Source: Dictyostelium discoideum
Taxonomy: Eukaryota
Direction of reading: 5' to 3'
Assembly (NCBI GenBank): GCA_000004695.1
Contig: CM000153.2
Location: forward strand, 1,664,001 to 1,728,000
Length of the DNA stretch: 64,000 bases
The translations under genes and the position numbers were made by a program. Shown here piece after piece: positions 1-18,968 of the stretch (positions are counted from its first letter, which is position 1; each line of letters starts with the position of its first letter). The notes beneath the pieces are model-generated. The model did not search any database, had not been told where the DNA came from, and saw only the letters and a list, made by a program, of their open reading frames with translations.

Positions 1-404
1 AAATCAAATTGTTAAGATACACGTGAAAAGTAATTCATCCTTTTCTATCCTTAATCTCGGTCAATTTTAACCAATCTTTCAAAAAAAATCACCAATCCAC
101 CACGATCTACAGATCTAACTTACCAAATCGCCGATTCAAAGGAATCCCATCGAGATGAATTCCTACGCAGACGCGGCTAAAATGGCCAACCCCTCCACCC
201 ATATGGACGAGGCATCAGAGAACTTCATTAAGGAATTCTCCACAAAAACAGCAGAGATAAAGGAGACCTACCCCAAATTATCAATAGGCCTCAAAGACAT
301 CTCCAAATACTGCGAGACCATATTGAACATGACTGCTCTCTCAACCTACGAGAAAAACAACGGATTCTACCCAATTACACTCGAATTCCCCAAAATGGAT
401 CTCA

Positions 405-504
405 NNNNNNNNNNNNNNNNNNNNNNNNNNNNNNNNNNNNNNNNNNNNNNNNNNNNNNNNNNNNNNNNNNNNNNNNNNNNNNNNNNNNNNNNNNNNNNNN
501 NNNN
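405..504. other. assembly gap (exactly 100 N)
   Basis: Run of 100 n characters; a standard scaffold-gap placeholder. Confidence 0.95.
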
Positions 505-531
505 CAAAGCTTTGCAGACGATTCGGCTTCA

Positions 532-2097
532 ATGGTCCCAGACTCTCAACAACTTGAATTAGTACTACAACACTTCAATTCATTTTGCAAAGCCACTTCC
601 TCAAAACTAAACATCGACAAATCTTCATCAATTCTTATAGGCAACCCAGACAATACCAACCAAAGAATTCCAATATCTACAAATCCAGAAAGATACTTGG
701 GATACTTCTTCACAGGCAAAGGGATAACAAGAAAAATGCCAGAAATATTAAACACAATAAGATCATCCTTAGTACTATGGAAAACCACTGACTCAACAAT
801 CAAAACCAAAACCAACATCCTCAAAGCATTCGCACTCTCTAAATTAACCTACTATTCATATGTAGAGAACTTTAAGGAAGAGGAATTAAACCAAATCAAT
901 AAATTGGTCGAATGGTTTTTATCGGCACCTAACAACAAAAATGCTAGTGGATTTCAAGTTATTAATTTAATGAGAACCAAAAGAGCAAGATACCCACTAA
1001 ATGTAGGGGGCTGGAACATTTGGAATATAGAATTGAGACAACTGGCGCAGAAACTTTGGATCATAAACCAGTTCATCCTAGCACTAGAAACCAAACAAAC
1101 AAACTCATCTCATCACAAAAGCTGGGAATATCAGATCCAAAAAAACAAATTCACATCCAGATACCTAAAAGAAAACTTAGACGAATGGAACAAAATAAGA
1201 ATAAAAAAAGCAATCTTCAACAATAATCTCACATCCATAAAAAACGAAAATGGACAACCACTTTCACTGGCAGAATGGTATACCACAATTCAAGACCAAA
1301 ATCCAACCATCCCTAAAACGGAATTCCAATCATCTCTAAACTTAAGAGGCTACAGCTATAATCAACTCTTCAACAACATACTGAAGATAAAAGACCCTAA
1401 AACAAGAGACACAATGTTTAGATTCCATGCCAGATGCCTTCCAATAAACTACCTTCACAACAAACAATGCCCACTCTGCAAAGAAGATATGAGCAAAGAC
1501 CCATACGGTCACCTGTTCTTCTCATGCAAGAAAACAAAACAATTCATAAAAATAAATAAACTCAAAAATTTCATCTATATTACCACAGGCAAAGGTAAAA
1601 ACTGGCACCATACAAGAATTAGGCAAAATAACAATTTCATTAATAGAATAACTCCAAAATTATCACCGATAGCCAAAAAAGATCAAGAAGTGAATGCAGA
1701 TTACGCCAACCTCAGATTCCACAAAGAATACTTTGAATGGAACTATAAAGCAATAGACTATGATCTAACTAGATCATTCGCATATAGAAACCTAATGGCC
1801 CTTATCCTCCACAACATTTGGATTTGGATTTGCAATCAAATATACAGTGAAGATCCTTTAACAGATGAATCACTATCATACAGCTCCCTTCTAAAGAAAT
1901 GGCACAAATTGGCCACTCTAGAATACATCAAAAAAGCAAAAGATCTGAAAAACTTATCAGCAAAAGACCATAATAACTTCAAAGATCCTAAGATCCTTCT
2001 CACTTCAACGATCAAGCTAAGAAAAACAACAGCTAATTACTATTGTATTCCAGAATCATCTCTCCCAAATATTATATCTTTTGATCAATTCATATGA
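532..2097 (+). CDS. retrotransposon ORF2 C-terminal segment (RT thumb + CCHC-like zinc motif), 521 aa as given
   Basis: Six-frame ORF 532..2097; see motifs above. The upstream ORF 155..562 is probably the same reading frame, interrupted by the N gap. Confidence 0.55.
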   Translation: MVPDSQQLELVLQHFNSFCKATSSKLNIDKSSSILIGNPDNTNQRIPISTNPERYLGYFFTGKGITRKMPEILNTIRSSLVLWKTTDSTIKTKTNILKAFALSKLTYYSYVENFKEEELNQINKLVEWFLSAPNNKNASGFQVINLMRTKRARYPLNVGGWNIWNIELRQLAQKLWIINQFILALETKQTNSSHHKSWEYQIQKNKFTSRYLKENLDEWNKIRIKKAIFNNNLTSIKNENGQPLSLAEWYTTIQDQNPTIPKTEFQSSLNLRGYSYNQLFNNILKIKDPKTRDTMFRFHARCLPINYLHNKQCPLCKEDMSKDPYGHLFFSCKKTKQFIKINKLKNFIYITTGKGKNWHHTRIRQNNNFINRITPKLSPIAKKDQEVNADYANLRFHKEYFEWNYKAIDYDLTRSFAYRNLMALILHNIWIWICNQIYSEDPLTDESLSYSSLLKKWHKLATLEYIKKAKDLKNLSAKDHNNFKDPKILLTSTIKLRKTTANYYCIPESSLPNIISFDQFI

Positions 2098-2194
2098 TTA
2101 AAATAACCCTTCAGCTTAAATGATAAGCCTTTAAATAAATATTAAATAAAACTCGTATTAACACAGATGGACATATATCAATCTTGTTAATCCA

Positions 2195-2241
<47 letters not shown>

Positions 2242-2249
2242 AAATTGTT

Positions 2250-2790
2250 TATTTAAAACTGGAATTATTTTCACCACATTTTTTGTTATAAAAAAAAAAA
2301 ATTAAAGGTATTTAAAAATAAAAAAAATGGTAAAAATTCACAAGATTTGCCAAGCTAATTAATTTTTTTTTTTTTTTAATGCGCAAAGATAAATTTCAAT
2401 ATTATCCTCATCATTTAAAATTGTGAAATTAGAAGTAATAAATGTATTTATCCTTTAACAAACACACCTAAATTTTATCAAGGGTCTAGAGGATAGAGGG
2501 ACAATCATTACAAGTAATGAATACTTTAAAAAAAAATTGGATTTCTCATAAAAATCTTTTCATTCCAAACATTGTGAAAACAACTCTAAACAATCTATTC
2601 AAATGATAATTTGACCTTTTATTTATAAATATAAAATTAAAATTAATTATCTCTAATAATATAATAATTTTTTTAAAAAAAAAAAATTTACATAATAATT
2701 TTTTTTTTTTTTTTAATCCCAATTTGAATCAGATGTTGTATCCATTGGAGCATTACTACTACTACTACTACTATTTCTTTTGCCTTTAAT
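2250..2790. repeat. segmental duplicate of 12350..12900 (3' end plus downstream flank of the NELF-B gene), including a copy of its last 14 codons
   Basis: Near-identical alignment read by eye (caaattgtttatttaaaactgg … aatcccaatttgaatcagatgttgt(a/g)tccattggagcattactactac). The copy diverges after 2790. Confidence 0.7.
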
Positions 2791-2946
2791 GTCCAAACTC
2801 ACTAAAAATAATTAATATTTCAGACCTAGATTTGGATGTTTGTAAATAAAAAATGGTTGCTGATTTTTATTTTTTAAAGATTAAATAATTAATTTTTTTT
2901 TTTGACAAAATACACCACCTGGCTTTTAATTGATATAAAAAAGACA

Positions 2947-3001
2947 GTTGACGAAGGTTTCTTTGAATGTAAGGAAATGTTAGATTTGCTGTAAGGTCAA
3001 C
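2947..3001 (-). ncRNA. Class I ncRNA gene (Dictyostelium class I RNA family), ~55 nt
   Basis: On the minus strand: GTTGAC-CCTTACAGCAA-…-GTCAAC. This is the conserved 11-nt Class I motif directly after the 5' half of a terminal stem whose 3' half is the exact complement. A DUSE-like box lies 72-80 nt upstream on the same strand. Confidence 0.6.
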
Positions 3002-3072
3002 TTTAATGTTTCTCACATTTTCTTAAAATGATATAAACATATAAAATTGAAACATTAAAATTAAAAATAGAA

Positions 3073-3081
3073 ATATGGGAT
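3073..3081 (-). promoter_or_regulatory. DUSE-like upstream element (ATCCCATAT, one mismatch) for the Class I RNA at 2947-3001
   Basis: Plus strand atatgggat; its spacing to the RNA 5' end matches the other copies. Confidence 0.45.
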
Positions 3082-3148
3082 CCAATCCTCCTCAAATCTT
3101 TTATTTTCTTATTTAATTAATAAAAAATAATTAATTTTGTTTGAAAAT

Positions 3149-3182
<34 letters not shown>

Positions 3183-3189
3183 CTCAATT

Positions 3190-3840
3190 TTTTTTTTTTT
3201 TTTCTCAAAAACCCATAAAAAGTTTTAATCAAATATCAATACCATTTTTAAATTTGAATTAAATATATTTTCGACGGGCATATCAGGACATCGAGTTTAA
3301 AACCTATTCAGACTCCAGAATACAAATTAATTTGAGCGGCAACGTTCATATCAATCTGCACTTAACAAATCATTAGAGGAATGGTTGCAAAATCATCCTC
3401 TGATGGTTAAAAAAATGCTGAGAAGTAACAGCATTAAAAAAAACATTTAGACCATAGTGGTGAGTCTTAAAATCCCAACCAGTTAGTAGAGACTAAAAAT
3501 CTACAAACAATAAACTCGATCTGATAACTGAAATGTCTTTTTTATTTTATTATTATTTTATTTAATTTTTTTATAATGGTAATAGAAATGGAAATGATAA
3601 TGTGACATCCTTGTTTACACCAACTAAAACTTTATTATATCTAAAGAAAACTAATTGCAATAAAAGAAGTTTAAGAAGAAAAAAAATAAAAATAAAAAAA
3701 AAGTGATAATAATTTTATTGATGATAATAAATAATTATAAATGTACGTCATATTACTATAAATAATATTACTTTATATTTACTAATTTATTTATTAATAT
3801 ATATTTTAATATTTATTAAATTAAAAAAAAAAAAAAAATT
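3190..3840. repeat. ~650-bp non-coding block (block M) repeated at 10738..11340 with a ~60-bp indel
   Basis: Shared strings cccataaaaagttttaatcaaatatcaataccatttttaaatttgaattaaatatatttt…gagcggcaacgttc…gctgagaagta(a/t)cagcattaaaaaaaacattt…taatggtaat(a/g)…aatggaaatg(a/g)taatgtgacatcc… in the same order. Confidence 0.7.
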
Positions 3841-3874
3841 TTTGAAATGTGATTTTAATCTCAAAACAATTAAG

Positions 3875-3903
3875 TTGATCCTACAAAAGAAACCTTCGTC
3901 AAC
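3875..3903 (+). pseudogene. degenerate/truncated Class I RNA-like remnant
   Basis: gttgatcctacaaaagaaaccttcgtcaac keeps the terminal stem halves but the CCTTACAGCAA motif is decayed (cctacaaaag), the total is only ~29 nt, and there is no DUSE upstream. Confidence 0.3.
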
Positions 3904-4016
3904 TGTCTTTTTTTTTTTTTTTTTTCTTTCAATTAATATTATTTCAAGTCTAAATTTAAATTTTTAGATTTACAAAATGCAAATTGGTAATTATTGATGA
4001 GAAAAATCCTATTTTT

Positions 4017-4065
<49 letters not shown>

Positions 4066-4121
4066 CTTGACAATTTAACAAGAAATTAAAAAAAAGTTTG
4101 TTTTTTTTATTAGTTAATACT

Positions 4122-4130
4122 ATCCCACAA
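4122..4130 (+). promoter_or_regulatory. DUSE (ATCCCACAA) 72-80 nt upstream of the Class I RNA at 4202
   Basis: Exact match to the (A/T)CCCA(C/T)AA consensus at the canonical distance. Confidence 0.6.
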
Positions 4131-4201
4131 AATTATTTTTTATTTAAAATTTCTTAAATAATTAATTATTTCAATCTTTTTTTAAATGTGCAAACATTTA
4201 A

Positions 4202-4257
4202 GTTGACCTTACAGCAAATCTTACAGTTCCTTCATTCTAAGAAAACCTTCCGTCAAC
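4202..4257 (+). ncRNA. Class I ncRNA gene, 56 nt
   Basis: gttgaccttacagcaaatcttacagttccttcattctaagaaaaccttccgtcaac: a 6-bp terminal stem GTTGAC/GTCAAC, with CCTTACAGCAA immediately after the 5' stem half. Confidence 0.7.
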
Positions 4258-4269
4258 TGTCTTTTTATT

Positions 4270-4555
4270 AATTAATTATTTATTTTGTATTACCATCATT
4301 AACTCTTGTATTTAATTCTTGAGCAATAATATATGTTAATTTAAGTTTTTTTAAAATTTAATAAGATTAAATTAAAAAATGATAATAAATAATTTTTTAA
4401 ATTTTTTAATCTTTTTTTAAATTAATTAAATAATAAATATATTAAAATATTATTTCTACTTATTGTTTAATTTTATCACAAAGTTACTTTATTAAATTTT
4501 ATTACAAAATAAAGGTATGAATAAGAAATTAATTTACTAAATAATTTTTTTTTTT
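4270..4555. repeat. block X, diverged copy at ~12100..12345
   Basis: Shared segments (ataagattaaat…, tttatcacaaa…, ttacaaaataaaggtat(g/a)aataagaaatta). Confidence 0.5.
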
Positions 4556-4733
4556 TTTTTAATCCCAATTTGAATCAGATGTTGTATCCATTGGAGCATT
4601 ACTACTACTACTTCTACTATTTTTTTTGCCTTTAATGTCCAAACTCACTAAAAATTATTAATATTTCAGACCTAAATTTGGATGTTTGTAAATAAAAAAT
4701 GGTTGCTGATTTTTATTTTTTAAAGATTAAATA

Positions 4734-4764
<31 letters not shown>

Positions 4765-4808
4765 TTGATAAAATACACCACTGGCTTTTAATTGATATAA
4801 AAATGACA

Positions 4809-4863
4809 GTTGACGAAGGTTTCTTTGAATGTAAGGAAATGTTAGATTTGCTGTAAGGTCAAC
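4809..4863 (-). ncRNA. Class I ncRNA gene (identical to the 2947-3001 copy)
   Basis: Same sequence as copy 1, minus strand. The DUSE atcccataa (plus strand ttatgggat, 4936-4944) lies 73-81 nt upstream. Confidence 0.65.
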
Positions 4864-4935
4864 TTTAATGTTTCTCACATTTTCTTAAAATGATATAAAC
4901 ATATAAAATTGAAAACATTAAAATTAAAAATAGAA

Positions 4936-4944
4936 TTATGGGAT
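4936..4944 (-). promoter_or_regulatory. DUSE (ATCCCATAA) for the Class I RNA at 4809-4863
   Basis: Consensus match at the canonical distance on the minus strand. Confidence 0.55.
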
Positions 4945-5236
4945 CCAATCCTCCTAAATTTTTTTATTTTCTTATTAAATTAATAAAAAATAATTAATTT
5001 TGTTTGGAAGAAGCAAATGGGAATAAAGTTATCGAAAAGGGTCTTTATTCTTATAAGATGATCAAAGATTCGCTGCTTCACCAGATGGTGTAATATTCGA
5101 TAAAATATCAGAAAGAGGATCGGAATGATCGAGATGCAAAAAAATATAAAAAAATTAAAAAAAAAATAAAAAAAAAAAAAAATTAAAAAAAAATAAAAAA
5201 AAAAAATTTTATCATGAAAAAGTCGATAATATTTTT

Positions 5237-6304
5237 TTGTGCTGCACTTTCAAATTAAAAATGTCCACCAAGCCAGTTAGCTTAACAAAAGAAATAATTT
5301 ATAAAATAAATAATTTTTTAAAAGATAAAGATACTTTCACCCCATTTAAAATCAAAGAAAAAGTATATGATAATAATATTTCCTTCACAACAATCCAAGA
5401 TAATTATGGTTATAATATTAATTGTTTACAAGGTGACAATTTGTGTTTAAAGGGTGCATCCAAAAATACCATCAAAATTTCAGTATACGCGTCGTTTTCA
5501 GATTTTTGGGGACATGCTTATTTCTTACATTATCATCTTGGACACGCACCAGCACATAAAATTTTAAAGATACTTAAAGAACTTAAACTTGGATTTCCAA
5601 AAATGAATAATGATATTTCAAATTATTTAATGATCATTTGTCCCATGTGCGTTCATTCTAACCGTAAAAATTTCAGTTCAAAAAACTTCGACCAAAATGA
5701 ATATTACAAAATATGTGAATGTATTGGTATGGATCCAGCACTCCTTATACAACCACAAATAATAAATCCACTTAACAATGTAAGAGGCAATGAAGAATCA
5801 ATGACATTTTCTTTTCTCACAGATCCAACTCCAACTGCGTACCTCGGCGAACCCACCCAAATAATAAATGTACCACCAACATATGATTACCAAATCATAA
5901 ATAGAGAGATATCAGATGAAATAGAGCCATTGATTTTTAAACCAATCATCAATAATTTAAAAATATTTCCTGCCGATTTGAATGATATTCCAATGTCTGC
6001 TTCCGTTCCAGAGCTTTTCGCTGAACCATACCTACATGTTTTCAAATCGTTTCCTCTTTATAAATCAAGTACTTTTGTTATTTGTATCGGTCGTTTTAAG
6101 AATATTGAAAATGAGAATTTACCCTTTTATTTAATAATAGCTGTAGATATAGACGATATTAAAAATAATGACCATATTCTATTAAATTATAGACCTTTGT
6201 TACAAGATCAAATAAATGGAAATTTTCATTTATTTGCAGAATTTAACCACAAAGAACACTCAAAAAAAAAATTAATAGAAATTGTACCATTCGCCAATTT
6301 GTAA
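5237..6304 (+). CDS. hypothetical protein with an HHCC-like zinc-binding motif (H-x-H-x2-H-x3-H … ~28 aa … C-P-M-C); part of the helicase island
   Basis: 355-aa ORF. LHYHLGHAPAHKILKILKELKLGFPKMNNDISNYLMIICPMC resembles the HH-CC zinc finger of integrase N-terminal domains. No DDE triad was recognised downstream. Confidence 0.35.
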   Translation: MCCTFKLKMSTKPVSLTKEIIYKINNFLKDKDTFTPFKIKEKVYDNNISFTTIQDNYGYNINCLQGDNLCLKGASKNTIKISVYASFSDFWGHAYFLHYHLGHAPAHKILKILKELKLGFPKMNNDISNYLMIICPMCVHSNRKNFSSKNFDQNEYYKICECIGMDPALLIQPQIINPLNNVRGNEESMTFSFLTDPTPTAYLGEPTQIINVPPTYDYQIINREISDEIEPLIFKPIINNLKIFPADLNDIPMSASVPELFAEPYLHVFKSFPLYKSSTFVICIGRFKNIENENLPFYLIIAVDIDDIKNNDHILLNYRPLLQDQINGNFHLFAEFNHKEHSKKKLIEIVPFANL

Positions 6305-6454
6305 ATTAAAAAATAAAACAAAATAAAAAAAAATAAAATATAAAAATTTGTAAATAAAAAGTTGTTTTTTTTTTATGGCAAAAAAAAAAAAAAATAAAAA
6401 AAAATAAAAATTAAAAAATTACTTTTTTTATGGTGAAATTTCATGTTGTAATTG

Positions 6455-6506
<52 letters not shown>

Positions 6507-6725
6507 GCAAACTAAATTTTTTTGTTATAAAAAAATAAATAACAAGCAAATAACTGAATAAAATTGGTTTTTTATTTTTCTGATTAAATAAATTGTTTTT
6601 TAATTTAATTATAAAAAAAAAAAAAATTTAGTGAATTTTTACACCATACATAAACAGCGTATTTTAGTGTAAAAATTCACTGCCGTTTAGAAAGCGAAAT
6701 TTCAAAAAAAATTCCCTACAACATG

Positions 6726-6835
6726 AAATTTTATGGTGAAATTTTTATGGTGAAATTTTATGGTGAAATTTTTATGGTGAAATTTTATGGTGAAATTTTA
6801 TAACCATAAAAATTCACCATAAAATATTTTTTTCA
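6726..6835. repeat. iteron-like tandem repeat: five direct copies of (t)tttatggtgaaat(t) plus one inverted copy (aattcaccataaaat), directly upstream of the helicase ORF
   Basis: Direct reading: …ttttatggtgaaatttttatggtgaaattttatggtgaaatttttatggtgaaattttatggtgaaattttataaccataaaaattcaccataaaat. A further copy, ggtgaaatttcatgttgtaattg, lies at 6434-6456. Confidence 0.7.
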
Positions 6836-6894
6836 AAAAAAAAAAAAATATAAATTTTTAAAAAAAAAAAATAATTATTCATCAAAAAAAAAAA

Positions 6895-9099
6895 ATGTCC
6901 AACAAAAGAGCCAGGATCGAAGATAGAGTTAACTTTTTAAAAGAAGAAAAATTTAATAAACCATATAATGTAGGTTTTAATTTAGATCCAAATAATGGGG
7001 AAGAAGAATATTTTGATATTGATACGAAAAGGGCTATTACCATGGTGGAAACGGCTCTTTGTACTTGTAAAATTGATGTCAGTATTGCTGTTTTTACAAT
7101 CTTAAAAATTCTTTCTTTAAAATTTGTTTTCAATACATCTGAAAATAAATTTTTTGTTAAAACCATTGGTTTCAAGGATAAAAATACAGGAAATGTTTCT
7201 TATGTTTTGGAAGAGATAAACGAATCAACAATTAAAAATATTCTTGGTTTAAATGATGGAATATCAAACAACAAATTAGAATCTGTACCTACCGAGCCAA
7301 TGACAGATAATATGATCTATGATGTGGATTTGGTAACCGATTTGGGTTTAAATAGAATTAAATTTGGTTTAGCAATTGAAGTTATGGAATATTTCAAAGA
7401 TTCAGAGAATTATTATTATCCAACGGGTAGATGTGGTTATACATATAGTGAATGGGAAGAAATATTTATAAGATGTCATTTGAAATCAAACTACAAAGAG
7501 AGCACAAAATCTATTGATATTTTGGGTTTTTTCAGATCTTCAACACTTGGTTACAGAGTCAATAATTTAATTTATGAACCACATGGCGCATTGGACCAGT
7601 GTGAAATTGTTGATGGTTTAGATGAGTGGTCCGGTGCATTCAATCAATTTACGGGTTTCCATCCAGAGTCGTTTGAACCAAGAAGAGATGAGATCGATGA
7701 TTTGGGTTTAAAGGTTGGGTGGAGAAATGATAAAAACATAATGAAAATTCTTTTTCATATTTATGTTGTTTGGTGTGATAGTTATGTCCCATTATTCCAA
7801 TATGTTTTATCCTGGTTTACAATATCTCTATTTGCTCCTAATACCAAACTTAGTAAACATTTAGTAATTTTCGGTCAACAAGGTTGTGGTAAATCGTTAC
7901 CAACAAGAGTTTTATTAAAATTATTCTCTGATAAGAATAGTTTCTTTGCTAATAGTGCCGAAGACGTTTTGGGTCATTTTAATCATCATTTAAATGGTCG
8001 GTTGTTTGTTGCTGTTGATGAACTTTCACCTAAATACTTGGAGCGTGAGAGATTTAAATCTCTCTTGACAGGTAGAGAAATGGTTATTACTCAAAAATAC
8101 AAGGGTAAAAAAAAAGAAATTAATAGGCTCAGATTCATCTGCTGTACAACCTCAAATAAAATCCAGAAAGGTCAAAGTTGTGTTCAATTATTAGTGTGCT
8201 CTCCAGTCGCAGTCGGTCAAACAAATTATTTTAAAAATTTGCACAATAGTATTGAAAATTTTGATGTAAAACTTTTCACTCGTATGTTGTTCGATGTATC
8301 TTTGGATAATTTTGGCAACGGTGGTGTAGAAATATCTAATCCATCCATTAATGCATATTCTACCACTTCAAATGTTATCAGATCTAACAGAAATGATAAC
8401 CAGGATGATAGTGTTAGTTTATACATTAATAAATTCTTGATGTCATGTATTCTTGATGGAGGTATATTGAGGGATGAAAATAATAATTATCATTGGCCCT
8501 CAAGATTACCAATTAGTAAAATAACCGAGAGATTCAACCAATGGATATCGGACACTTATCCATCAAGTAACGAAGTTAACGGTGAATTGGTTGCATCTGA
8601 AAAATCTCCTCAACGTTTGGTTTGTGAAAATATTATCACAAGTAATAATTTGATAACTTATATTTATCAAGCTGGTGGTTTTAAATATCTTTATACCACA
8701 TCAGGAAATAGATCGTCTATCAGTCTCTCAAGTAATGAGTATCAGTTTGTTTATGAATTTTTAAACAAGAACATTTCTTTATTCACACCCAAACAAATTG
8801 ATACACTTTGTGAAAGATATCTATCCCTTGGTATATCTGAACCAAATGAATTAATATCACATTTAACCTTAACTAAACAAAAACGAGTGAACCCTTTTGA
8901 AGAAATTGATACACATGTCTTTGAAGTTATAGAACATATTCATAAGAGTTTCTTAAGAACAAATGGTGATAGTACTTATTTTAAGGGATGGGGTGATGAA
9001 GTTGATCCAATTCTAAATGTTGAAGTTCCTGGTACAATGTTACTAAATGATCCATTTATTAAAACCCATAGGGAGTTCTTATCGTCACAAATTAATTAA
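6895..9099 (+). CDS. superfamily-3 helicase domain protein of the D5 / phage P4-alpha primase-helicase type (734 aa)
   Basis: Walker A VIFGQQGCGKS (nt ~7873-7899), Walker B LFVAVDELS (~8008-8030) and SF3 motif C FICCTTSN (~8140-8157) in the canonical order and spacing. ~300 aa N-terminal to Walker A includes YFDIDTK, a possible AEP-primase motif I. Single long ORF without introns. Confidence 0.65.
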   Translation: MSNKRARIEDRVNFLKEEKFNKPYNVGFNLDPNNGEEEYFDIDTKRAITMVETALCTCKIDVSIAVFTILKILSLKFVFNTSENKFFVKTIGFKDKNTGNVSYVLEEINESTIKNILGLNDGISNNKLESVPTEPMTDNMIYDVDLVTDLGLNRIKFGLAIEVMEYFKDSENYYYPTGRCGYTYSEWEEIFIRCHLKSNYKESTKSIDILGFFRSSTLGYRVNNLIYEPHGALDQCEIVDGLDEWSGAFNQFTGFHPESFEPRRDEIDDLGLKVGWRNDKNIMKILFHIYVVWCDSYVPLFQYVLSWFTISLFAPNTKLSKHLVIFGQQGCGKSLPTRVLLKLFSDKNSFFANSAEDVLGHFNHHLNGRLFVAVDELSPKYLERERFKSLLTGREMVITQKYKGKKKEINRLRFICCTTSNKIQKGQSCVQLLVCSPVAVGQTNYFKNLHNSIENFDVKLFTRMLFDVSLDNFGNGGVEISNPSINAYSTTSNVIRSNRNDNQDDSVSLYINKFLMSCILDGGILRDENNNYHWPSRLPISKITERFNQWISDTYPSSNEVNGELVASEKSPQRLVCENIITSNNLITYIYQAGGFKYLYTTSGNRSSISLSSNEYQFVYEFLNKNISLFTPKQIDTLCERYLSLGISEPNELISHLTLTKQKRVNPFEEIDTHVFEVIEHIHKSFLRTNGDSTYFKGWGDEVDPILNVEVPGTMLLNDPFIKTHREFLSSQIN

Positions 9100-9586
9100 T
9101 TCTAAAATAAACTGTTTTTTTTTTTTAATATTTTAAAAAATTATAAAATAATTTTTTTTTATTTATTTATTTATTATAATTTTAATTTAATTTTTAAAAA
9201 TGGAAGAGTTTGAAGAAATTACAGTACATAATTCTGACACGATCAGAAAAGAATTTTTAAGGAAAAATGCATTTTCCCTTAAAAAAAGAAGATAAAGATA
9301 TTTTAAAACAAAAGGACAATGAACCAAAGCAACCAACAGATATTAAAAAACCAAGAGCAGCATCAAAAAAATAGGAAAAAGAAGAAAAAACTGTTCCAAT
9401 CGTGAATGATAAAAAAAGACAAGCAGAGGTAAGAAAATATGTTTCATTTAGGAATTTTCATTAATTAAAAGGTGTAACAGGTCCTGATATTCCGAATAAA
9501 GCATCAACACAAGAATTGGTAATAGAAAATCAAAAAATGGAAGAAATGTTATCATCACAAGATCAAATGAAGGTTGCAAAGGTCTT

Positions 9587-9901
9587 TTGGATTATGACAA
9601 CAAAGGATTAGAATCAGTTCACAAAGATGTACCATTTTTAAACAAATTAAATTTAGAAGGACATGGTGAAAATGCTTTTAATGCATGGGATGAGGTCAAA
9701 GATATATGGCAGGAATTAACTATAAAATATGAACTTTTCAGGTCAGGTGTCGAACTTCGTTTAGCAATGGCATTCGTGAATAGTGTTGCAACAACTCATA
9801 AAATAAACTCATTTAAATTCGAAAAATCAACAAATGAAGAAAAATCTCAAAGTATTAATAACAATGAAAAATTATCTGAAGCACTAAAGAGAAAAATATA
9901 A
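9587..9901 (+). CDS. small hypothetical ORF in the helicase island (104 aa)
   Basis: ORF only; no recognisable motifs. Confidence 0.2.
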   Translation: MDYDNKGLESVHKDVPFLNKLNLEGHGENAFNAWDEVKDIWQELTIKYELFRSGVELRLAMAFVNSVATTHKINSFKFEKSTNEEKSQSINNNEKLSEALKRKI

Positions 9902-9910
9902 ATAAAGACG

Positions 9911-10258
9911 ATGGAATTTTTATCACTTGGTATGGGATTATTAATAGGTAGTTATTTTTTCCCTTACTCATCCACAAAAAATGATACAAAATCATCATAT
10001 AAAAAGTCACAAACAAAAGATCCAACATTATCAAACTATATTGAACTTCATGACCTTGGAAAATTAACACCAAAAGAAAGGGTAGTAGTCGAGTTTAGGA
10101 GATTCAACACAGGATCTCAAATGTTATCATATAAATTCGATCCGGCATTCTCTCATAAAGATTTTGAGTACGATGTCTTGTTGTCTTGTGGTAAGAAAAT
10201 TCTAGTACACCTCCATAATTTACCAAAAATTGGAAAGGATATTCACGAATCACATTAA
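9911..10258 (+). CDS. small hypothetical ORF in the helicase island (115 aa)
   Basis: ORF only; abuts the preceding and following ORFs. Confidence 0.2.
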   Translation: MEFLSLGMGLLIGSYFFPYSSTKNDTKSSYKKSQTKDPTLSNYIELHDLGKLTPKERVVVEFRRFNTGSQMLSYKFDPAFSHKDFEYDVLLSCGKKILVHLHNLPKIGKDIHESH

Positions 10259-10670
10259 AAAAAGAGTAGAAATGGAAGCAGTTTTAGCAATGACACATGC
10301 AAATATTCAAGTTAGTATTGGGTCAATCTTAGGTCACCAATTGGATGAAATTTGTAACAATTATCTTTTAAGAGAAACAAAAAAACAACAATCACAATTC
10401 ATTATTCCAACATTGGTTGACCCAATGGATATTCATTTATCAAAAATAAAAAATGCCAACTCAGAAGATATAATGAAAGCAACAGGTATCCAAATTACAT
10501 CTGGTGTTTCTATTACACTTTTATTAGGGAATGGTGCACCTTTTTTATTTTCAGGTGACCCAATGTTTGGTATCCCATTTTACCTCACTTTTTTTGGTGG
10601 TCAAGAAAAAATGTTAGCAAATTTTAAAGAATTAAATAAAAGACTTGATAATACAATTAAATTGAAATAA
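10230..10670 (+). CDS. small hypothetical ORF in the helicase island (146 aa)
   Basis: ORF only. Confidence 0.2.
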   Translation: MERIFTNHIKKRVEMEAVLAMTHANIQVSIGSILGHQLDEICNNYLLRETKKQQSQFIIPTLVDPMDIHLSKIKNANSEDIMKATGIQITSGVSITLLLGNGAPFLFSGDPMFGIPFYLTFFGGQEKMLANFKELNKRLDNTIKLK

Positions 10671-11653
10671 ATAAATAAATAAAAAAGTTTCACAACTATT
10701 TATTTTTTTTTTTTTTTTCTAAATTTTTTTTTTTTTCCCAAAAACCCATAAAAAGTTTTAATCAAATATCAATACCATTTTTAAATTTGAATTAAATATA
10801 TTTTCAACGGGCATATCAAGACATCGAGTATAAAACCTATTCAGACACCAGAATACAAATTAAAAAGAGCGGCAACGTTCTTATAAATCTGCACCTCAAT
10901 GTTAAGAACGGCAACGTTCATATCATTCTGCAATACTCGTATCACCAAGGAACTGATTGAAATCAACCTCAGATTGAGTACATAATGCGCTGAGAAGTAT
11001 CAGCATTAAAAAAAACATTTAAATAACCTAAACTCGATCTGATACCTGAAATGTCTTTTTTATTTTATTTTTTTATTTTTTTTTTATTTTTTTATAATGG
11101 TAATGTAAATGGAAATGGTAATGTGACATCCCTATTTACATCAACAAAAACTATATTATATCTACAGAAACCTACTTGCAATAAAAGAAGTTTAGAAGAA
11201 AAAATAAAAAAATAAAAATAAAAGTGTGATAATAATTTTATTGATAAATATTATGTACATCATATTATTATAAATAATATTAATGTTTATTTACTAATTT
11301 AATATATACTTTAATATTTTAATTATTAAATTAAAAAAAAAAATAAAAAAATAAAAAAATTATTTATTATTTTTTTTTTATATTGATTAATCGGTGTTTA
11401 TCCATTAAAGGAAATAAACTATAATTAATTAGTTTGATGAGTTTTAATTTTAAAAAATTAGTTAAAAAAAATTTCTAGGGTCATAATTATTTATTTAACC
11501 ACTAAATTTTTTTATTTAATTTTTTAATTATCTAATCTTAGAAAAAACTAAAAAACTAAAAAAAAAACATATTATTGCTAATGACTTTTTAAAATGAGAG
11601 GTTATCCTAAATAAATAATTAAATAAATAAATAATTAATTAATTAAAAAGACA

Positions 11654-11709
11654 GTTGACGGAGGGTTTTCTTAGAATGAAGGAACTGTAAGATTTGCTGT
11701 AAGGTCAAC
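11654..11709 (-). ncRNA. Class I ncRNA gene, 56 nt
   Basis: Minus strand gttgaccttacagcaaatcttacagttccttcattctaagaaaaccctccgtcaac, one difference from the 4202 copy. The DUSE atcccacaa lies 73-81 nt upstream on the minus strand. Confidence 0.7.
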
Positions 11710-11781
11710 TTAAATGTTTTACACATTTAAAAAAAGATTGAAAAAATTAATTATTTAAGAAATTTGGAGTGAAAAATAATT

Positions 11782-11790
11782 TTGTGGGAT
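11782..11790 (-). promoter_or_regulatory. DUSE (ATCCCACAA) for the Class I RNA at 11654-11709
   Basis: Plus strand ttgtgggat. Confidence 0.6.
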
Positions 11791-11876
11791 TTCAATATAA
11801 AAAAAAAAAAAAAAAAACTCTAATTAAATTCGAATATTTGGTAATTATTTAAGAATTGAATTTTGTTGAACTATCT

Positions 11877-11885
11877 ATCCCACAA
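11877..11885 (+). promoter_or_regulatory. DUSE (ATCCCACAA) upstream of the divergent Class I-like locus at 11966
   Basis: Exact consensus, 81-89 nt upstream. Confidence 0.5.
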
Positions 11886-11965
11886 ATTTTTATTTGGTTA
11901 TTAAATTCCGAAAAAAAGAATATTTGAATTTTATTTGAAATGTGAATGTAATCACAAACAATTAA

Positions 11966-12019
11966 GTTAATCCTACAGCAATTCTATTACTCAACATGCA
12001 AAAGAAATCCTTTGTCAAC
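11966..12019 (+). ncRNA. divergent Class I RNA-like locus (motif CCTACAGCAA with a 1-nt deletion; 5' stem GTTAAT vs 3' GTCAAC)
   Basis: gttaatcctacagcaattctattactcaacatgcaaaagaaatcctttgtcaac. It retains a DUSE but the stem and motif are imperfect, so it may be a variant or a decaying copy. Confidence 0.4.
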
Positions 12020-12836
12020 TGTCTTTTTTTTTTTCTTTCATTTAATAATTTCAAGTATATTTTTTAATTTTTAGATTTACCAAATGCGAATCGGTAATTA
12101 TTGATGAGAAAAATCCTATGTTAATTGAAGTTTTTTTAATATTTTATAAGATTAAATAATAAAATGATAATTATAAAAAATAGTTTTTTTAATTTTTTTA
12201 ATTATTTTCTTTAATTAATTAATTTTCTAAAATAAATATTAATATTATTTATTATTCTTATTATTCAATTTTATCACAAAATAACACTTTTTTAATTTAT
12301 TTACAAAATAAAGGTATAAATAAGAAATTAAAACTTTTGGAAACAAAAAATCAAATTGTTTATTTAAAACTGGAATTATTTTCACCACTTTTTTTTTTAT
12401 TTGTGTTATAAAAAGAAAAATAAAAGGTATTTAACAATAAAAAAATGGTAAAAATTCAATAGAGATTTGCCAAGCTAATTAATTTTTTTTTTTTTTTTAA
12501 TGAGCGAAGATAAATTTTAATATTATCTTCATCATTTTAAATTGAGGCATAAGAAGTAATAAATGTATTTATCCTTTAATAAACACATCTAAATGTTATC
12601 AAGGGTCTAGAGGATAGAGGGACAATCATTACAAGTAATGAATGTTTTATAAAAATCTTTTCATTTCATAAAAATCTTTTCATTTCAAACATTGTGAAAA
12701 CAACTCTGAACAATCAATTCAAATGATCATTTGACCTTTTATTTATAAATATAAAATTAAAAATAATTATCTCAAATAATATAATAATTTTTTTAAAAAA
12801 AAAAAAATTTACTAAATAATTTTATTTATTTTTTTT

Positions 12837-13419
12837 TTAATCCCAATTTGAATCAGATGTTGTGTCCATTGGAGCATTACTACTACTACTACTACTACTA
12901 TTGTTGTTGTTATTATTATTACTATTATTATTAATATTATTTGAACTAGTTTCCATTGGAGATTCAGTTGAAGATGGTGGTGCGCTTGTAATATTTGAGC
13001 CAGTATTATTTGATACTGAAGAAGTTGAAGATGGTGCACTAATTAATTCAGAAGAAGACAATGTTGGTGAAACCATTTTATCAATTGGTTGAGATAATTG
13101 TGAATGTTGTTGTAATAAATGTTGATGTTGTTGTTGCTGATTGGTTAAAGTTGGTGAAAGGAATTGTTTTTGATTTAATTTATAAAATTCGTATAGTGAC
13201 AATGCTATCTTTTCATTATATCTTTGACTGGTTTTATCGATTAATAATCTAGTAGAATGAACTATATCATCCAATAATTTTTTATTTACATTGTTATTTC
13301 CTTCAATTGTTTGTTGTTGTTGTTGTTGTTGTTGTTGTTTTTTATAAGTTGATAATACACTATTATATAATTTTTGAATAAAATGAATAAATTCTCTTTG
13401 ATTCATTCTTGTATGATTC

Positions 13420-13456
<37 letters not shown>

Positions 13457-15614
13457 TTTTAAAAATAAAATGTCAATATTAATACATTTTAAAAAATAAA
13501 AATAAATATCAATTATAATTATATAACAATACCTCTAACAAATATCTAATTAATTGTTTTTGAATGAATGGTAAAAATCTAAATTTAAATAAAAATGAAT
13601 CTATAATGATTGAATTAAATCTTTGTTCTTTAACTTGTAAAACTTGAGAAACCATTGACTGTATAAAATCATTTCCAAAGTATTTATAAATATCAACATT
13701 TGATAATTGTTCGTATGTACTATCTTCTGTTGATTGTGTAGTTGTAGTGGTTGTTGCTGTTGTTGTTGTTGTTGTTGGTGTTGGTGTAGTATTAGATGTA
13801 TCAGATTGATTCGTTGTTGTTGTTGTTGTTGTTGTATCAACTGATGATACAGTTGGAGATTGAATTGTAGGATTTGGAGTTGATTCAGTTATATTATTAT
13901 CTTGTAAAATTAATTTATAAATGAATTTTAAATATCTATCAACACTAATTAAATCTTTATCCAATGCTCTATTTATAATATAAGATAAGGTTATTTTTTT
14001 ACAAACTTCATATTTTAAATAACAATTTTCTAAATCTTGAAATTCTGATACACTCATTAATGAAGTTGATTCTAAAACTGGTGAAGTTGAAGATGACATT
14101 GATAATAAATTATTTGATGATTTATTAATATTTGTACCTATTGTATTATTACCAGTACCACCACCACTATTATTACCACTATTACCACCACTATTAACAC
14201 TACTACCACCACCACTACTTATATCCTTTATAACTGTTGATGATGAACTATTTAAATTTGAAGAGATTGTATTTGCAGGATTTGTACTACTAGTATTAGA
14301 AGTAGAAGATGATGATAATGAAATTGTTGAAGTTTGTTCACGTGTTATATCATCTAAAATTTGAGTTGCTAAAAGTGGATAAAAAGTTTGAAGGATATGT
14401 TTTTTAACATGTGGAATTTTAAATTTTGATTCTTTAATCATTTCATGAGATTTAAGAGCTAAAACCAATAGATAAGTTAAAAACTTTATAGATTCATCAT
14501 CTTTTGGAATTTGTTTTCTTTTTACAACTTCTTTCAATTGAATTAAAATATTTCTAACGATACAATTGACAGCGATTGGATTTGCAAATACCATAGCTGT
14601 ATCACCCAATGTTGAAGAGTTTTGATGATGTACACTCGAAGATAGATTAGTTTGAATCTCTTTGATACGTCGGGCGTCAAGAGTGTTGTCTCTAATGCAG
14701 GCGTCCAAACACCAGGCTATATTATGCGACGCGTCGGTGTCGTAGATCTCAGGGATTGATTTATCGTGGATAGCCATCAATATCTCTGCACGCAAATTAC
14801 AAAGTAAATAATTACCACTATCGGCAAACGATCGCTTTATCTGATTGATAAACATTTGGTAGAGGTCAGGCGACTTTGTGCCAAACAGCTCCACCATCTC
14901 CTGTAAGACTGAATTGTTTTCACGACGCTTTGCAGGCAAATGCGAAACTGCGAATAATGGGTCCACCGTAGTCGACGAACTCAATAACAATTGCTCATTC
15001 ATATCTTGAATGAATATAGGATCCTCAATATATTGATTAATCAATGGTTTTATCTTTTCTTTAAATAACTCCTCATTAACAATCCAAATTTGTCTCTTTA
15101 CCTCAATTGGACATTGTTCATATAATTCTTCAGCTTCTGCTAATTTCAATAAAAATGCAACTGGTACTTCTGGTGTTAATCTTTTCATTACATTCATTGG
15201 TATTTCTTGTAATTCTTCAAATCCAATATATGGAAATGTTTGTTCTAATAATTTTTCTAATCTATTTTCAAATAAATAATAAATAATTAGTAAAAAAAAA
15301 AAAAATAAAAAAAAAAAATAAATTATTATTATTATTATAAATTTAAAAATGTTTATTTACTCATGTTTATTTAATGTATTAATTTTTAATAATAAATCTT
15401 TTTTTAATGAACTTAAAAGATTTAAATATAAATCACCACGCGGTATTTGATGTAAATCTAATAAATTTAAAACTGGTGAAACTGTTGGTAAACTCTTTTT
15501 TGAAATTCCATTCTCTTGTTGAAATTGACTAATAAATTGAAGTGGGTATGTTGTTGTTGAAAGTGATGTTAAAATTTTTTCTGATCCTAAATTACCAATT
15601 AAAAATTCTTCCAT
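12837..15614 (-). CDS. nelfB: negative elongation factor B (NELF-B/COBRA1) homolog; model join(12837..13418,13533..15261,15361..15614), exon 3 junction uncertain
   Basis: Alignment from memory to NELF-B: ISQFQQENG…LNLLDLH, IEVKRQIWIVNEELF, LCNLRAEILMAIHD, HNIAWCLDACIRDNTLDARRIKEIQ. Intron 1 (GTAAAT…AG, 15360..15262) joins MEEF…LNKHE to LEKLLEQ… in frame. A 100-bp A-rich gap (13419..13532) with a possible GTATTG donor would fuse the 189-aa downstream ORF in frame. Alternatively that ORF is a separate gene. Confidence 0.7.
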
Positions 15615-16127
15615 TCTTTTTTTTTTTTTTTCTGTTTTTTTTTATATCATATTATTAATAAAAAAAATGAAAGTAAATATTAAAAAAAAAAAATAAAAAA
15701 ATAAAAAAAATTAAAAAAAAAAAAAAAAAAAATCATAAAAAAAAAAAAATTTGGCGCCAGTCATTAAAATTTTAATTTCACCACAACCTTAATTTTTTCA
15801 ATAATTTTCGAGAATTAAGATTAAAAATAAGAAAAAAAAATGAATGGGAAATTTCAAAAAAAAAAATAAAAATAAAATAAAAAATAATTAAACAAAACAA
15901 AAAAAAGTGATCGATTATATATATTTGGTTATTGAGAATTATTTTTATTTTTTTTAAAAAAAAAATTTTTGGGGTTCTGTGAAATTTAAAAAAAAAATAA
16001 AAAAAAAAATAAAAAAAAAAAAAAAATTTTAAAAAAAAAAAAAAATTTTAAAAAAAAAAATTTTTTTTAAAGACGATTTCATTTTTTTTTTATTTTTTCA
16101 TACTTATTATTAATATTATAAAAAAAA

Positions 16128-17774: not shown

Positions 17775-18132
17775 AAAAAAAAAAAAAATTTATAAAATAA
17801 AATATATATTAAAAAAAAAAAAAGATTTAAAAAATTGTATTATTTATTTGTCTAAAATTTTAAGTTGTAGTACTAAAAAAAGTTTAAAAATAAAGTTGAT
17901 AAAATTTTAATTACAATTTTAACAAAAAAATGAAAAAATATAATAATAATAACAATAATATCAACAATTAAAAGTGTAATGTTTTTTTTTTTTAATATTT
18001 AAAATTTTATTTAATAACATTTAAAAAGATACAATAAAGGAGGATCAAGCTCAAGGATATAATTCTAAAATACTTTATGAAGGAAAAAAAAAATATATAT
18101 TAGTATTTATAAATTTTTTTGTTTGTTCACTT

Positions 18133-18163
<31 letters not shown>

Positions 18164-18396
18164 TAATTAAAGATTGAATCATTTGCAGCATGAGTTTATA
18201 ACCATTTTTCCTATCTGTGTATGATGATGATAGGTGTACTTTATGCCTTTTCTAATCATTTAAAATCTTTACCAATTACTTTTTTTTAAAAAAAAAAAAA
18301 TATTATCACTTTCACTTACATTTGCTTATGGTTGGCAATGAAAAAAAAAATGAAAAAAAAAAAAATTTTGAAACTTTTTTATTCCAGAGCCCCTAG

Positions 18397-18429
<33 letters not shown>

Positions 18430-18803: not shown

Positions 18804-18845
<42 letters not shown>

Positions 18846-18968
18846 TTATTTTTTAATTTATTATTATTATTTTTTTTTTAATTTATTATTTTTTATTTTT
18901 TATTGTGAATTTAAAGAATTAGTTTACTGAATAATATTAATAAATTATGAAATAAAAAATTTATTGAT

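Follow-up and report, generated by a model that had tools for sequence, protein, structure and literature searches.

Identification of the Class I RNA genes

Six small-RNA loci in a stretch of 64,000 nucleotides (hereafter the window) are almost certainly Class I small-RNA genes that were published and annotated before, namely DdR-23B, r53, DdR-26, DdR-23A, DdR-24B and r54 on chromosome 4 of Dictyostelium discoideum AX4. The sequence-only reading that pointed to them was correct but described what was already known, as the loci, the promoter layout, the expression and the doubts about r53 and r54 are all on record in publications and annotation. Earlier descriptions of DdR-23A/B/C, DdR-24A/B and DdR-26 are found in Aspegren et al. 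2004, Avesson et al. 2011 and Kjellin et al. 2021.

The assignment is based on Rfam scores, sequence identity, coordinates and a flanking gene. Searches with RF01414 (Dicty_Class_I_RNA) gave 53.9 bits for both 2945-3001 and 4807-4863 (minus strand), 51.8 bits for 11652-11709 (minus strand) and 50.3 bits for 4202-4259 (plus strand), with E-values of 1e-7. These four of the six loci score above the curated gathering score (GA) of 41.5 bits and r54 falls below it, while no snRNA family was matched by these loci in the Rfam search. No sequence difference separates the four intact loci from the curated FASTA entries of DdR-23A/B, DdR-24B and DdR-26. The window corresponds to chromosome 4 positions 1,664,001-1,728,000, and all six coordinate pairs match the published GFF at a constant offset (window + 1,664,000). 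In addition, the window contains a NELF-B ORF with 100% identity to the flanking gene DDB_G0284195 of D. discoideum AX4. No observation spoke against the assignment. The two loci at 2945-3001 and 4807-4863 (DdR-23B and DdR-23A) had been called an identical pair, and so they are. All four RNAs had been placed correctly, except that the 3' ends were set 2 nt short, since the RNAs run on to ...GTCAACTG.

Class I RNAs are defined by a 6-bp terminal stem, the 11-nt CCTTACAGCAA beside the 5' stem half and an upstream DUSE (PMC7919456), which is the consensus that the sequence-only reading had applied. The 11-mer occurs four times in the window (2986-2996 minus, 4207-4217 plus, 4848-4858 minus and 11694-11704 minus). 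At RNA level the motif CCUUACAGCAA lies directly 3' of the 5' stem half, exact in four loci and unpaired in their MFE folds, and the 6-bp GUUGAC/GUCAAC stem is present in the RNAfold MFE structure of all four intact RNAs. Their 5'-terminal G, 3' CUG(U), length of 57-58 nt (Class I range ~42-65 nt) and intergenic position agree with the Class I criteria. The MFE z-score of DdR-23 alone (-0.86) is unremarkable, as expected for a 6-bp stem. The loci had been called non-coding, and no ORF of at least 70 aa overlaps any of the six.

Class I RNAs are described as abundant, located mainly in the cytoplasm and regulated during development (PMC7919456). In the published RNA-seq (Table S2, PMC7919456), DdR-23A/B/C have about 330,000-630,000 reads each, a figure that is not copy-specific, as reads of identical copies multi-map; this caveat weighs most on DdR-23B, given its degenerate DUSE. 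For DdR-24B 42,940-110,523 reads were reported, and for DdR-26 127,566-326,747. The ranking of the six loci, with four genes intact, one locus a variant and one a decayed remnant, matches the literature, where DdR-23A/B, DdR-24B and DdR-26 are curated and expressed. A real lineage-specific ncRNA family was recovered here from raw sequence without tools and its members were ranked correctly, which makes the case a positive control.

Promoter organization and transcription

DdR-23B with its promoter extends over 2945-3080 on the minus strand, with the RNA at 2945-3001 (published chr4 1666945-1667001; identical to published DdR-23A/B/C), a TGTG box (AAATGTG) at 3014-3020, the DUSE variant TCCCATAT at 3073-3080 and a T6 run directly 3' of the RNA. 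DdR-26 (4123-4259, plus strand) carries the DUSE TCCCACAA at 4123-4130, a TGTG box at 4184-4190 and the RNA at 4202-4259 (published 1668202-1668259; identical to published DdR-26), followed by TCTTTTT. DdR-23A (4807-4943, minus strand) consists of the RNA at 4807-4863 (published 1668807-1668863), a TGTG box at 4876-4882 and the DUSE TCCCATAA at 4936-4943. For DdR-24B (11652-11789, minus strand), the RNA lies at 11652-11709 (published 1675652-1675709; identical to published DdR-24A/B), the TGTG box at 11722-11728 and the DUSE TCCCACAA at 11782-11789.

A DUSE had been claimed at five of the six loci. All five indeed bear one and r53 does not, but only four have an exact (A/T)CCCA(C/T)AA; the octamer TCCCATAT of DdR-23B has one mismatch and appears in the same form in published Table S2. 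The fixed -72/-80 spacing that had been proposed reflects the published D. discoideum promoter layout. Relative to the first G, the DUSE starts and ends at -79/-72 or -80/-73 at four loci and at -88/-81 at r54. What is fixed is the distance between DUSE and TGTG box, which measures 60-61 nt wherever a DUSE is present (five loci), and these distances reproduce published Table S2 exactly. The TGTG box had been overlooked; AAATGTG is found upstream of all six loci, the remnant r53 included. The RNA starts 18-30 nt after this box across the loci and 18-19 nt after it in the intact genes, and a T run comes after every gene.

It has been reported that the DUSE is required for Class I expression, that the TGTG box lies ~60 nt downstream of the DUSE in D. 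discoideum and that the T runs suggest Pol III transcription (PMC7919456). By the Class I criteria, the DUSE lies ~60 nt before the start of transcription or, in D. discoideum, before a TGTG box. In each intact gene the order is DUSE octamer, TGTG box 60-61 nt further on, RNA start 18-19 nt later and an immediate T run, and transcription is dependent on the DUSE. The transcribing enzyme is probably RNA polymerase III, and a short precursor with a 5' extension starting at the TGTG box may be formed first. The ends of the resulting 57-58-nt RNA pair into the 6-bp stem and leave the invariant 11-nt CCTTACAGCAA single-stranded. The likeliest action of such an RNA, a hypothesis in the field, is that of a protein-binding (sponge or buffer) or mRNA-binding RNA. 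Direct binding of Rnp1A (CIBP) was shown only for DdR-21, the loss or knockout of which disturbs early multicellular development (PMC7919456).

The variant r54 and the remnant r53

The locus r54 (11878-12021, plus strand; published coordinates 1675966-1676021) has the DUSE TCCCACAA at 11878-11885, a TGTG box at 11938-11944 and a body at 11966-12021 (GTTAAT CC-TACAGCAA ... GTCAACTG), followed by a T11 run. It is probably a pseudogene with an intact promoter. The body reaches only 29.1 bits, below the GA of 41.5, and its 11-nt motif reads CC-UACAGCAA, a 1-nt deletion. The stem contains one A-C mismatch, and r54 is the one locus whose MFE structure has no terminal stem; the stem was recovered in the four intact RNAs and in the remnant.

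It seems very unlikely that r54, perhaps along with r53, works as a divergent Class I RNA instead of being a pseudogene, with expression possibly confined to unsampled conditions. The perfect DUSE, the TGTG box at 60 nt, a terminator in the form of a T run and conservation of the 5' G and the 3' CUG would fit this reading, as would a score of 43.9 in the published classifier, above its threshold of 32 (Table S2, PMC7919456). On the other hand, its reads are 2,0,0,0,0,0 at 0, 4 and 8 h, its CM score is 26.4 and no DdR name was given to it by the authors (Table S2, PMC7919456), so that the small-RNA signal, very abundant for the four intact sequences, is silent here. The deletion falls in an otherwise invariant motif and recurs in two relatives: r53, which lost its DUSE and ~26 nt, and an off-window copy without a DUSE.

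The remnant r53 (3845-3905, plus strand; annotated chr4 1667874-1667905) retains a TGTG box at 3845-3851 and a truncated body at 3874-3905 (GTTGATCCTACA / ~26-nt deletion / AAAGAAACCTTCGTCAACTGT), with a long T run after it. As had been stated for this locus, it has no DUSE, and none lies within 150 nt. It gave no match in the Rfam search at E <= 10 and is absent from the Table S2 candidates with a CM score of at least 15 (PMC7919456). Only CCUACA remains from the 11-nt motif; the terminal stem of its MFE fold has 6 bp including one G-U pair. Aligned to r54, it shows the ~26-nt internal deletion, and the CC-TACA motif deletion is common to both. The alignment shows that r53 and r54, which have in common this CC-TACAGCAA deletion as well as a longer spacer between TGTG box and start, are decayed members of one sub-lineage. 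A third, full-length member with the same motif deletion and no DUSE lies left of the window; its promoter pattern suggests that it is the published candidate ddi_can_1, in which case it has no reads. Together with the polymorphic TRE-type insertion behind DdR-24A (see below), the intact promoter of r54 without RNA bears on the questions of the transcribing polymerase and of RNA stability.

Organization and origin of the array

The cluster is larger than the six loci first reported: it holds nine (eight annotated and one rejected candidate), three of them just left of the window. By self-BLAST, duplication blocks share 73-93% identity. Block A with DdR-23B (2230-3146) has paralogues at 4523-5009 (93%, with DdR-23A) and 12341-12897 (90%), the latter joined without a break to the true 3' end of NELF-B. 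In the block A copies, a fragment of NELF-B comprising its last ~19 codons is present at 2716-2775 and at 4562-4621, and both fragments translate to ...SSSSNAPMDTTSDSNWD, the C-terminus of DDB_G0284195, which shows which copy was the duplication source. From these similarities, the array appears to consist of three tandem segmental-duplication units of ~1.9 kb, one just left of the window, interrupted by two insertions. It arose through tandem segmental duplication of a ~1.9-kb unit that began beside NELF-B. Two conserved convergent genes enclose the single intergenic spacer that the array as a whole takes up. The same spacer is short and without Class I genes in three sister species, which dates the array expansion to the D. 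discoideum lineage. Identical Class I genes are known to sit in clusters, read as a possible sign of duplication-driven expansion (PMC7919456).

The loci had also been described as three inverted pairs. These orientations are present, but are a by-product of tandem segmental duplication and one local inversion. It is very improbable that the convergent/divergent pairing is itself functional, e.g. through shared bidirectional promoters or convergent transcription. DdR-24B and r54 do stand head-to-head with their DUSEs 88 bp apart, and DdR-26 and DdR-23A tail-to-tail, 548 bp apart. However, a complete DUSE-TGTG promoter and a T-run terminator belong to every gene separately, and one partner is dead in two of the three pairs. 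In the neighbouring unit r53 and DdR-26 are in tandem, the third unit, left of the window, has the same order (r23-B-variant-r24), so that a ~330-bp segment that became inverted (4084-4396 versus 11830-11504) accounts for the head-to-head arrangement. Clusters are described in the literature, but no rule for their orientation (PMC7919456).

Chance matches in AT-rich intergenic DNA can be dismissed, as the sequence-only reading had expected: although the DUSE octamer alone is not enriched (8 in the window versus 8.6 expected), the 11-mer CCTTACAGCAA is found four times against a mean of 0.32 in shuffles (0/100 reach 4), the full pattern GTTGAC-CCTTACAGCAA-N25-45-GTCAACTG four times against 0.00 expected and the composite CCCAYAW-N50-55-AAATGTG exactly five times, all at these loci, against 0.03, besides the low Rfam E-values and the identity to published, expressed RNAs.

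Insertions and block B

Between the off-window DdR-24A and block A, a non-LTR (TRE-family) retrotransposon was found at 14-2239 (plus strand), with a poly(A) stretch at 2200-2239, a 100-N assembly gap at 405-504 and a 9-bp target-site duplication CAAATTGTT on both sides (5-13 and 2241-2249). It sits 64-72 bp downstream of DdR-24A and is polymorphic; in a second D. discoideum assembly it is absent and the empty site is intact. The retrotransposon is of the tRNA-gene-targeting type, and no tRNA gene is present in the 22-kb locus.

The second insertion, a virus-like segment of 5.7 kb (5010-10698, plus strand), splits the DdR-23A block from the second copy of block B. In the neighbouring unit the corresponding blocks adjoin each other at 3146/3163. 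Besides DDB_G0284191 (734 aa, DUF5906/VapE-like helicase domain), the segment contains four more ORFs.

Block B (3163-3838, plus strand) has a paralogue at 10699-11348 with 78% overall identity, and the DUSE-type octamer ACCCATAA is present at 3211-3218 and 10744-10751. About 55-58 nt downstream of the octamer begins a strongly structured, GC-richer segment (3273-3543 and 10806-11061) that ends in T6. It is unannotated and occurs in every unit, including the third copy left of the window. No Rfam family matched it, and the ncRNA series published by the Soderbom group does not include it. Tentatively, and with considerable doubt, block B could represent an undescribed dictyostelid ncRNA (DUSE-driven, T-run-terminated, highly structured, ~243-268 nt), a fourth gene per unit co-amplified with Class I. 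A separate proposal, equally doubtful, is that the retrotransposon behind DdR-24A might be independent genomic evidence for Pol III machinery on Class I genes.

Comparison with known systems

The intact loci share sequences, coordinates and DUSE/TGTG distances with DdR-23A/B/C, DdR-24A/B and DdR-26 (RF01414); no difference was found, and they are the same genes. Comparison with the published Class I sequences and promoter spacings, as the sequence-only reading had proposed, thus gave full identity for the four intact genes. The loci r53 and r54 correspond to dictyBase DDB_G0295581 and DDB_G0295589 with the same coordinates, r54 also with the published CM-score range and promoter elements, and differ from the named genes in being absent from the 2021 curated set. 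DdR-35 and DdR-36, which formed Class II until it was merged into Class I, have the same 11-nt motif and an upstream DUSE, but a GCUCGC/GCGAGU stem, no TGTG box and a DUSE 58-60 nt from the RNA start, whereas GUUGAC stems and TGTG boxes are found at the loci described here. The DUSE-driven snRNA genes of D. discoideum use the same upstream octamer, and closely related genes among them occur in pairs (PMC7919456; PMC3188802). They differ from the Class I loci of the window in a DUSE placed ~60 nt from the start of transcription, the lack of a TGTG box and spliceosomal folds.

Class I loci and their published annotation

The conserved 11-mer CCTTACAGCAA, which adjoins the 5' stem half of Class I RNAs, has four occurrences in the 64 kb examined, all at the places stated in the sequence-only reading, against a mean of 0.32 in dinucleotide shuffles, none of which (0/100) reached four. 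For the whole architecture, GTTGAC-CCTTACAGCAA-N25-45-GTCAACTG, four occurrences were found in the window against 0.00 expected. Four matches to the curated Rfam model RF01414 (Dicty_Class_I_RNA) scored above its gathering score of 41.5 bits: 2945-3001(-) and 4807-4863(-) with 53.9 bits each, 11652-11709(-) with 51.8 bits and 4202-4259(+) with 50.3 bits. The recognition of these loci as Class I genes is therefore borne out, as is the expectation that their motif would be rare in shuffled sequence. At a permissive threshold, RF01414 also detected the variant at 11966-12021(+) with 29.1 bits and one non-canonical stem pair, while the remnant at 3874-3905 was not matched even then. Folding with RNAfold, proposed as a check of the 6-bp terminal stem, placed this stem in the minimum free energy structures of all four intact RNAs and also in that of the remnant, but not in that of the variant.

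For D. discoideum AX4, Class I genes were annotated by Kjellin et al. 2021 (PMC7919456, supplementary files), who list on chromosome 4 (DDB0232431) r23B at 1666945-1667001(-), r53 at 1667874-1667905(+), r26 at 1668202-1668259(+), r23A at 1668807-1668863(-), r24B at 1675652-1675709(-) and r54 at 1675966-1676021(+). After subtraction of 1,664,000 these coordinates equal those of the window loci exactly in all six cases, r53 being the remnant and r54 the variant. Two further annotated members, r23C (1662690-1662746, -) and r24A (1663884-1663941, +), are situated just left of the window. The curated FASTA sequences of DdR-23A/B/C, DdR-24A/B and DdR-26 are identical to the window sequences, and comparison with the published sequences, as had been proposed, identified the four intact loci as DdR-23A/B, DdR-24B and DdR-26. 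Since coordinates and sequences both agree, all loci had already been named and annotated; the original finding is correct and well read, but already known in full.

Promoters and terminators

In D. discoideum, the upstream promoter octamer DUSE lies about 60 nt upstream of the TGTG box (AAATGTG), and the RNA starts at a variable distance beyond it (PMC7919456). A TGTG box is present at all six loci, and at the five that carry a DUSE the distance between the starts of the two elements is 60 or 61 nt; 0.03 occurrences of this composite pattern would be expected, and five are present. From the start of the TGTG box to the first G, 18-19 nt were counted in DdR-23A/B, DdR-24B and DdR-26, 28 nt in r54 and 29 nt in r53 (-30 when counted from position 3875). 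The octamer of DdR-23B, TCCCATAT, carries one mismatch to the consensus, and this variant as well as the DUSE and TGTG distances agree line by line with the published Table S2 (PMC7919456). The DUSE spacing of -72/-80 that had been described as fixed is real, but results from the published DUSE-to-TGTG arrangement of about 60 nt. A T run directly follows the 3' end of every gene, and on the basis of such T runs Pol III transcription has been suggested in the literature (PMC7919456).

Expression and status of the members

Published small-RNA-seq data (PMC7919456, Table S2) assign about 330,000-630,000 reads to each of the DdR-23 copies, whose sequences are identical so that reads multi-map, 43,000-110,000 reads to DdR-24B and 128,000-327,000 reads to DdR-26. 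For r54 the counts were 2, 0, 0, 0, 0 and 0, and no DdR name was given by the authors; r53 is absent from the published candidates with a CM score of at least 15 (PMC7919456). When the six loci were aligned together with their flanking sequence, r53 and r54 formed one sub-lineage. Common to both are a C-to-T change at stem position 6, a 1-nt motif deletion (CC-TACA) and a spacer after the TGTG box that is longer by about 9 nt. In the alignment r53 additionally lacks about 26 nt of the body and the DUSE. Based on these shared changes and losses, the labels 'variant' for r54 and 'remnant' for r53 were well chosen.

In the r54 region (11878-12021) the DUSE is perfect, the TGTG box follows at 60 nt and a T11 run serves as terminator, but the published data contain essentially no reads. 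This makes r54 a natural case of an intact promoter without RNA accumulation, for which the RNA body, with its stem mismatch and motif deletion, is the likely cause.

A full-length variant of the r53/r54 type, GTTGATCCTACAGCAATTCTATCACTATACATACAAAAGAAACCTTCGTCGACTC, is found outside the window, about 370 bp upstream of r24A on AX4 chromosome 4 (positions 4893-4986 of L006, the corresponding locus in a second D. discoideum assembly), with a TGTG box and without a DUSE. Both its TGTG box and a spurious 'DUSE', AATCACAA, agree with the published candidate ddi_can_1 (CM 31.9, no reads; PMC7919456, Table S2), with which it is probably identical. From this variant it follows that the motif had lost its nucleotide, and the DUSE had been lost, before the internal deletion of r53 arose.

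Array architecture and origin

Self-comparison shows the Class I loci to sit within segmental duplications. The DdR-23B region 2677-3146 has a paralogue in the DdR-23A region 4523-5009 (93% identity), and 3803-4015 with r53 corresponds to 11886-12122 with r54 (73%), while 4084-4396 with DdR-26 is paralogous, in inverted orientation, to 11830-11504 with DdR-24B (81%). Two further duplicated pieces are block A, 2230-2773 and 12341-12897 (90%), and block B, 3163-3838 and 10699-11348 (78%). On the right, the array is flanked by the NELF-B gene DDB_G0284195: the ORF 13509-15197(-) has 100% identity to this D. discoideum AX4 gene, and the ORF 12837-13406(-) is the last exon of its protein. Pseudo-copies of the last approximately 19 NELF-B codons (...SSSSNAPMDTTSDSNWD) are located at 2716-2775 and 4562-4621 on the minus strand, travelling with the duplicated DdR-23 blocks. 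Since these C-terminal codons are kept in both copies, the duplication started from the NELF-B-adjacent copy at 12341-12897.

L006, from assembly GCA_054883475.1, is 99.7% identical to window positions 2230-19115, and its part beyond the left window edge contains r23C(-), another copy of block B (the third), the full-length r53/r54-type variant without DUSE and r24A(+). Taken together with the duplications found by self-comparison, this left part establishes the array as three tandem units of about 1.9 kb each, with the order r23(-), block B(+), r53-type(+) and r24/26-type(+), except that the third unit has its r24 segment in inverted orientation. Tandem duplication and this inversion produced the 'three inverted pairs' of the sequence-only reading as a by-product.

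A structured DUSE-linked segment in each unit

Block B, present in one copy per tandem unit of the array, contains the DUSE-type octamer ACCCATAA at 3211-3218 and 10744-10751, and at 4319-4326 of L006 in the third copy. About 55-58 nt past the octamer, an AT-rich spacer gives way to a GC-richer segment of 243-268 nt ending in the T run CTGAAATGTCTTTTTT, so that octamer through T run span 3211-3543, 10744-11061 and L006 4319-4623, all on the plus strand. The minimum free energies were -72.2 kcal/mol for the left copy (shuffle mean -42.4, z -7.08), -56.5 kcal/mol for the right copy (-36.6, z -4.63) and -51.9 kcal/mol for the third copy (-32.3, z -4.74), and in each of the three copies none of 200 shuffles folded as well. 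The left copy was the most extreme of 58 fold windows across 2.1-13 kb; its opposite strand reached a z of only -2.70. Terminal helices of 6, 4 and 10 bp and two hairpins are common to the three copies, and in one of these hairpins a U-A pair is replaced by A-U, a compensatory change. Large indels distinguish the middle parts of the copies, and some copies may for this reason be decaying.

No ORF longer than 41 aa was found in block B. An Rfam scan at E <= 10 gave no family and returned chance-level matches only (IMES-2 with 19.9 bits against a gathering score of 54.7, SAM-II, snoRNA fragments); by the Rfam models block B is neither SRP, RNase P/MRP or U3, nor an snRNA, nor a fragment of rRNA. 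Telomerase RNA and vault RNA were dropped, as the literature searched offered no lead. The published maximum-sensitivity CM lists have no entry at these coordinates, and block B is therefore not Class I-like. It is also absent from the published Class I/ncRNA identifier series, in which the flanking ncRNA identifiers are consecutive. Block B may be a DUSE-driven ncRNA gene that has so far gone undescribed. No comparable GC-richer segment with a terminal T run follows the other two DUSE octamers (39712 and 57901), which look like chance matches.

Virus-like segment and other window features

The third unit is split by a 5.7-kb segment (5010-10698) that carries DDB_G0284191, encoding 734 aa with a helicase domain of the SF3-type DUF5906/VapE-like kind, and four additional ORFs in the same orientation. 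DDB_G0284191 matches PHROG 'DNA primase' families, and a set of 1.84 billion representative proteins contains only two full-length relatives of this helicase. Together with the three ORFs downstream of it, the helicase is collinear with one Logan contig (ERR13950607), and the helicase and two of the three have homologues in one Dictyostelium cf. discoideum region, where a YqaJ-type exonuclease and a weak match to the Pox_A32 ATPase are also present. The segment resembles part of a virus-like or mobile element. Shortly before the start of the helicase ORF, tandem copies of a 13/27-nt unit TGAAATTTTATGG (6724-6801) give spurious miRNA-like Rfam matches (mir-360, 28 bits against a gathering score of 60) and low fold z-scores. 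At 24900-29900, several direct and inverted duplicated blocks with 74-90% identity are present, three regions being homologous to a single D. citrinum short-chain dehydrogenase (adh_short) gene, as if this gene had been amplified locally in D. discoideum.

Retrotransposon beside DdR-24A

Positions 14-2239 are occupied by a non-LTR retrotransposon with a poly(A) tail, flanked by the 9-bp target-site duplication CAAATTGTT at 5-13 and 2241-2249. The element is absent from the second D. discoideum assembly, where the empty site is intact. Its insertion site is 64-72 bp downstream of DdR-24A (r24A), and no tRNA gene was found in the 64-kb window or in the 22-kb locus L006. All non-LTR elements of D. 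discoideum are TREs (PMC5391098), and TRE3 integrates about 100 bp downstream of tRNA genes (PMC5006619). A search for the family name in the supplementary GFF and among protein names returned only 'reverse transcriptase domain-containing'. ORF2 has a homologue in D. purpureum with 61% identity, a species reported to hold only TRE3-like elements (PMC5006619), and from this homology we infer a putative TRE3 assignment. At this distance the insertion is compatible with the way TRE3-type elements target Pol III genes; as a single case it hints at, but does not prove, occupation of Class I genes by the Pol III machinery.

Mode of action

The promoter spacing, the T-run terminators and the terminal stem with an unpaired invariant 11-mer were seen here or are documented in the literature. 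DUSE is needed for Class I expression, and the RNAs are highly abundant and developmentally regulated; Rnp1A binds DdR-21 directly, and a DdR-21 knockout has a phenotype (PMC7919456). Class I genes would be transcribed by Pol III, possibly as a precursor starting at the TGTG box, and the RNA could either sequester or buffer proteins, in the manner of a sponge, or bind mRNA. With modest confidence, a protein buffer in which the 11-mer would serve as protein-binding platform is considered the likeliest mode of action.

Conserved flanks and sister species

The left boundary of the array is a RasGAP-like gene (L006 202-3663), and the whole array (approximately 12 kb, window 1-12840 compared) fills the spacer between this gene and the convergent NELF-B gene. 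To the right of 12840, gene order is conserved in the sister-species loci L001, L002 and L003 and in L006. Only 372-758 bp separate NELF-B from the RasGAP-like orthologue in D. citrinum, D. dimigraforme and D. firmibasis. Neither a Class I gene nor CTTACAGCAA was found in the spacers of these three species and 10 kb on either side, and in a synteny search for the array in the same species similarity ended at the NELF-B 3' end. Given these short Class I-free spacers, the ~12-kb array is at this site confined to the D. discoideum lineage, in agreement with the published conclusion that Class I genes expanded mainly after speciation (PMC7919456).
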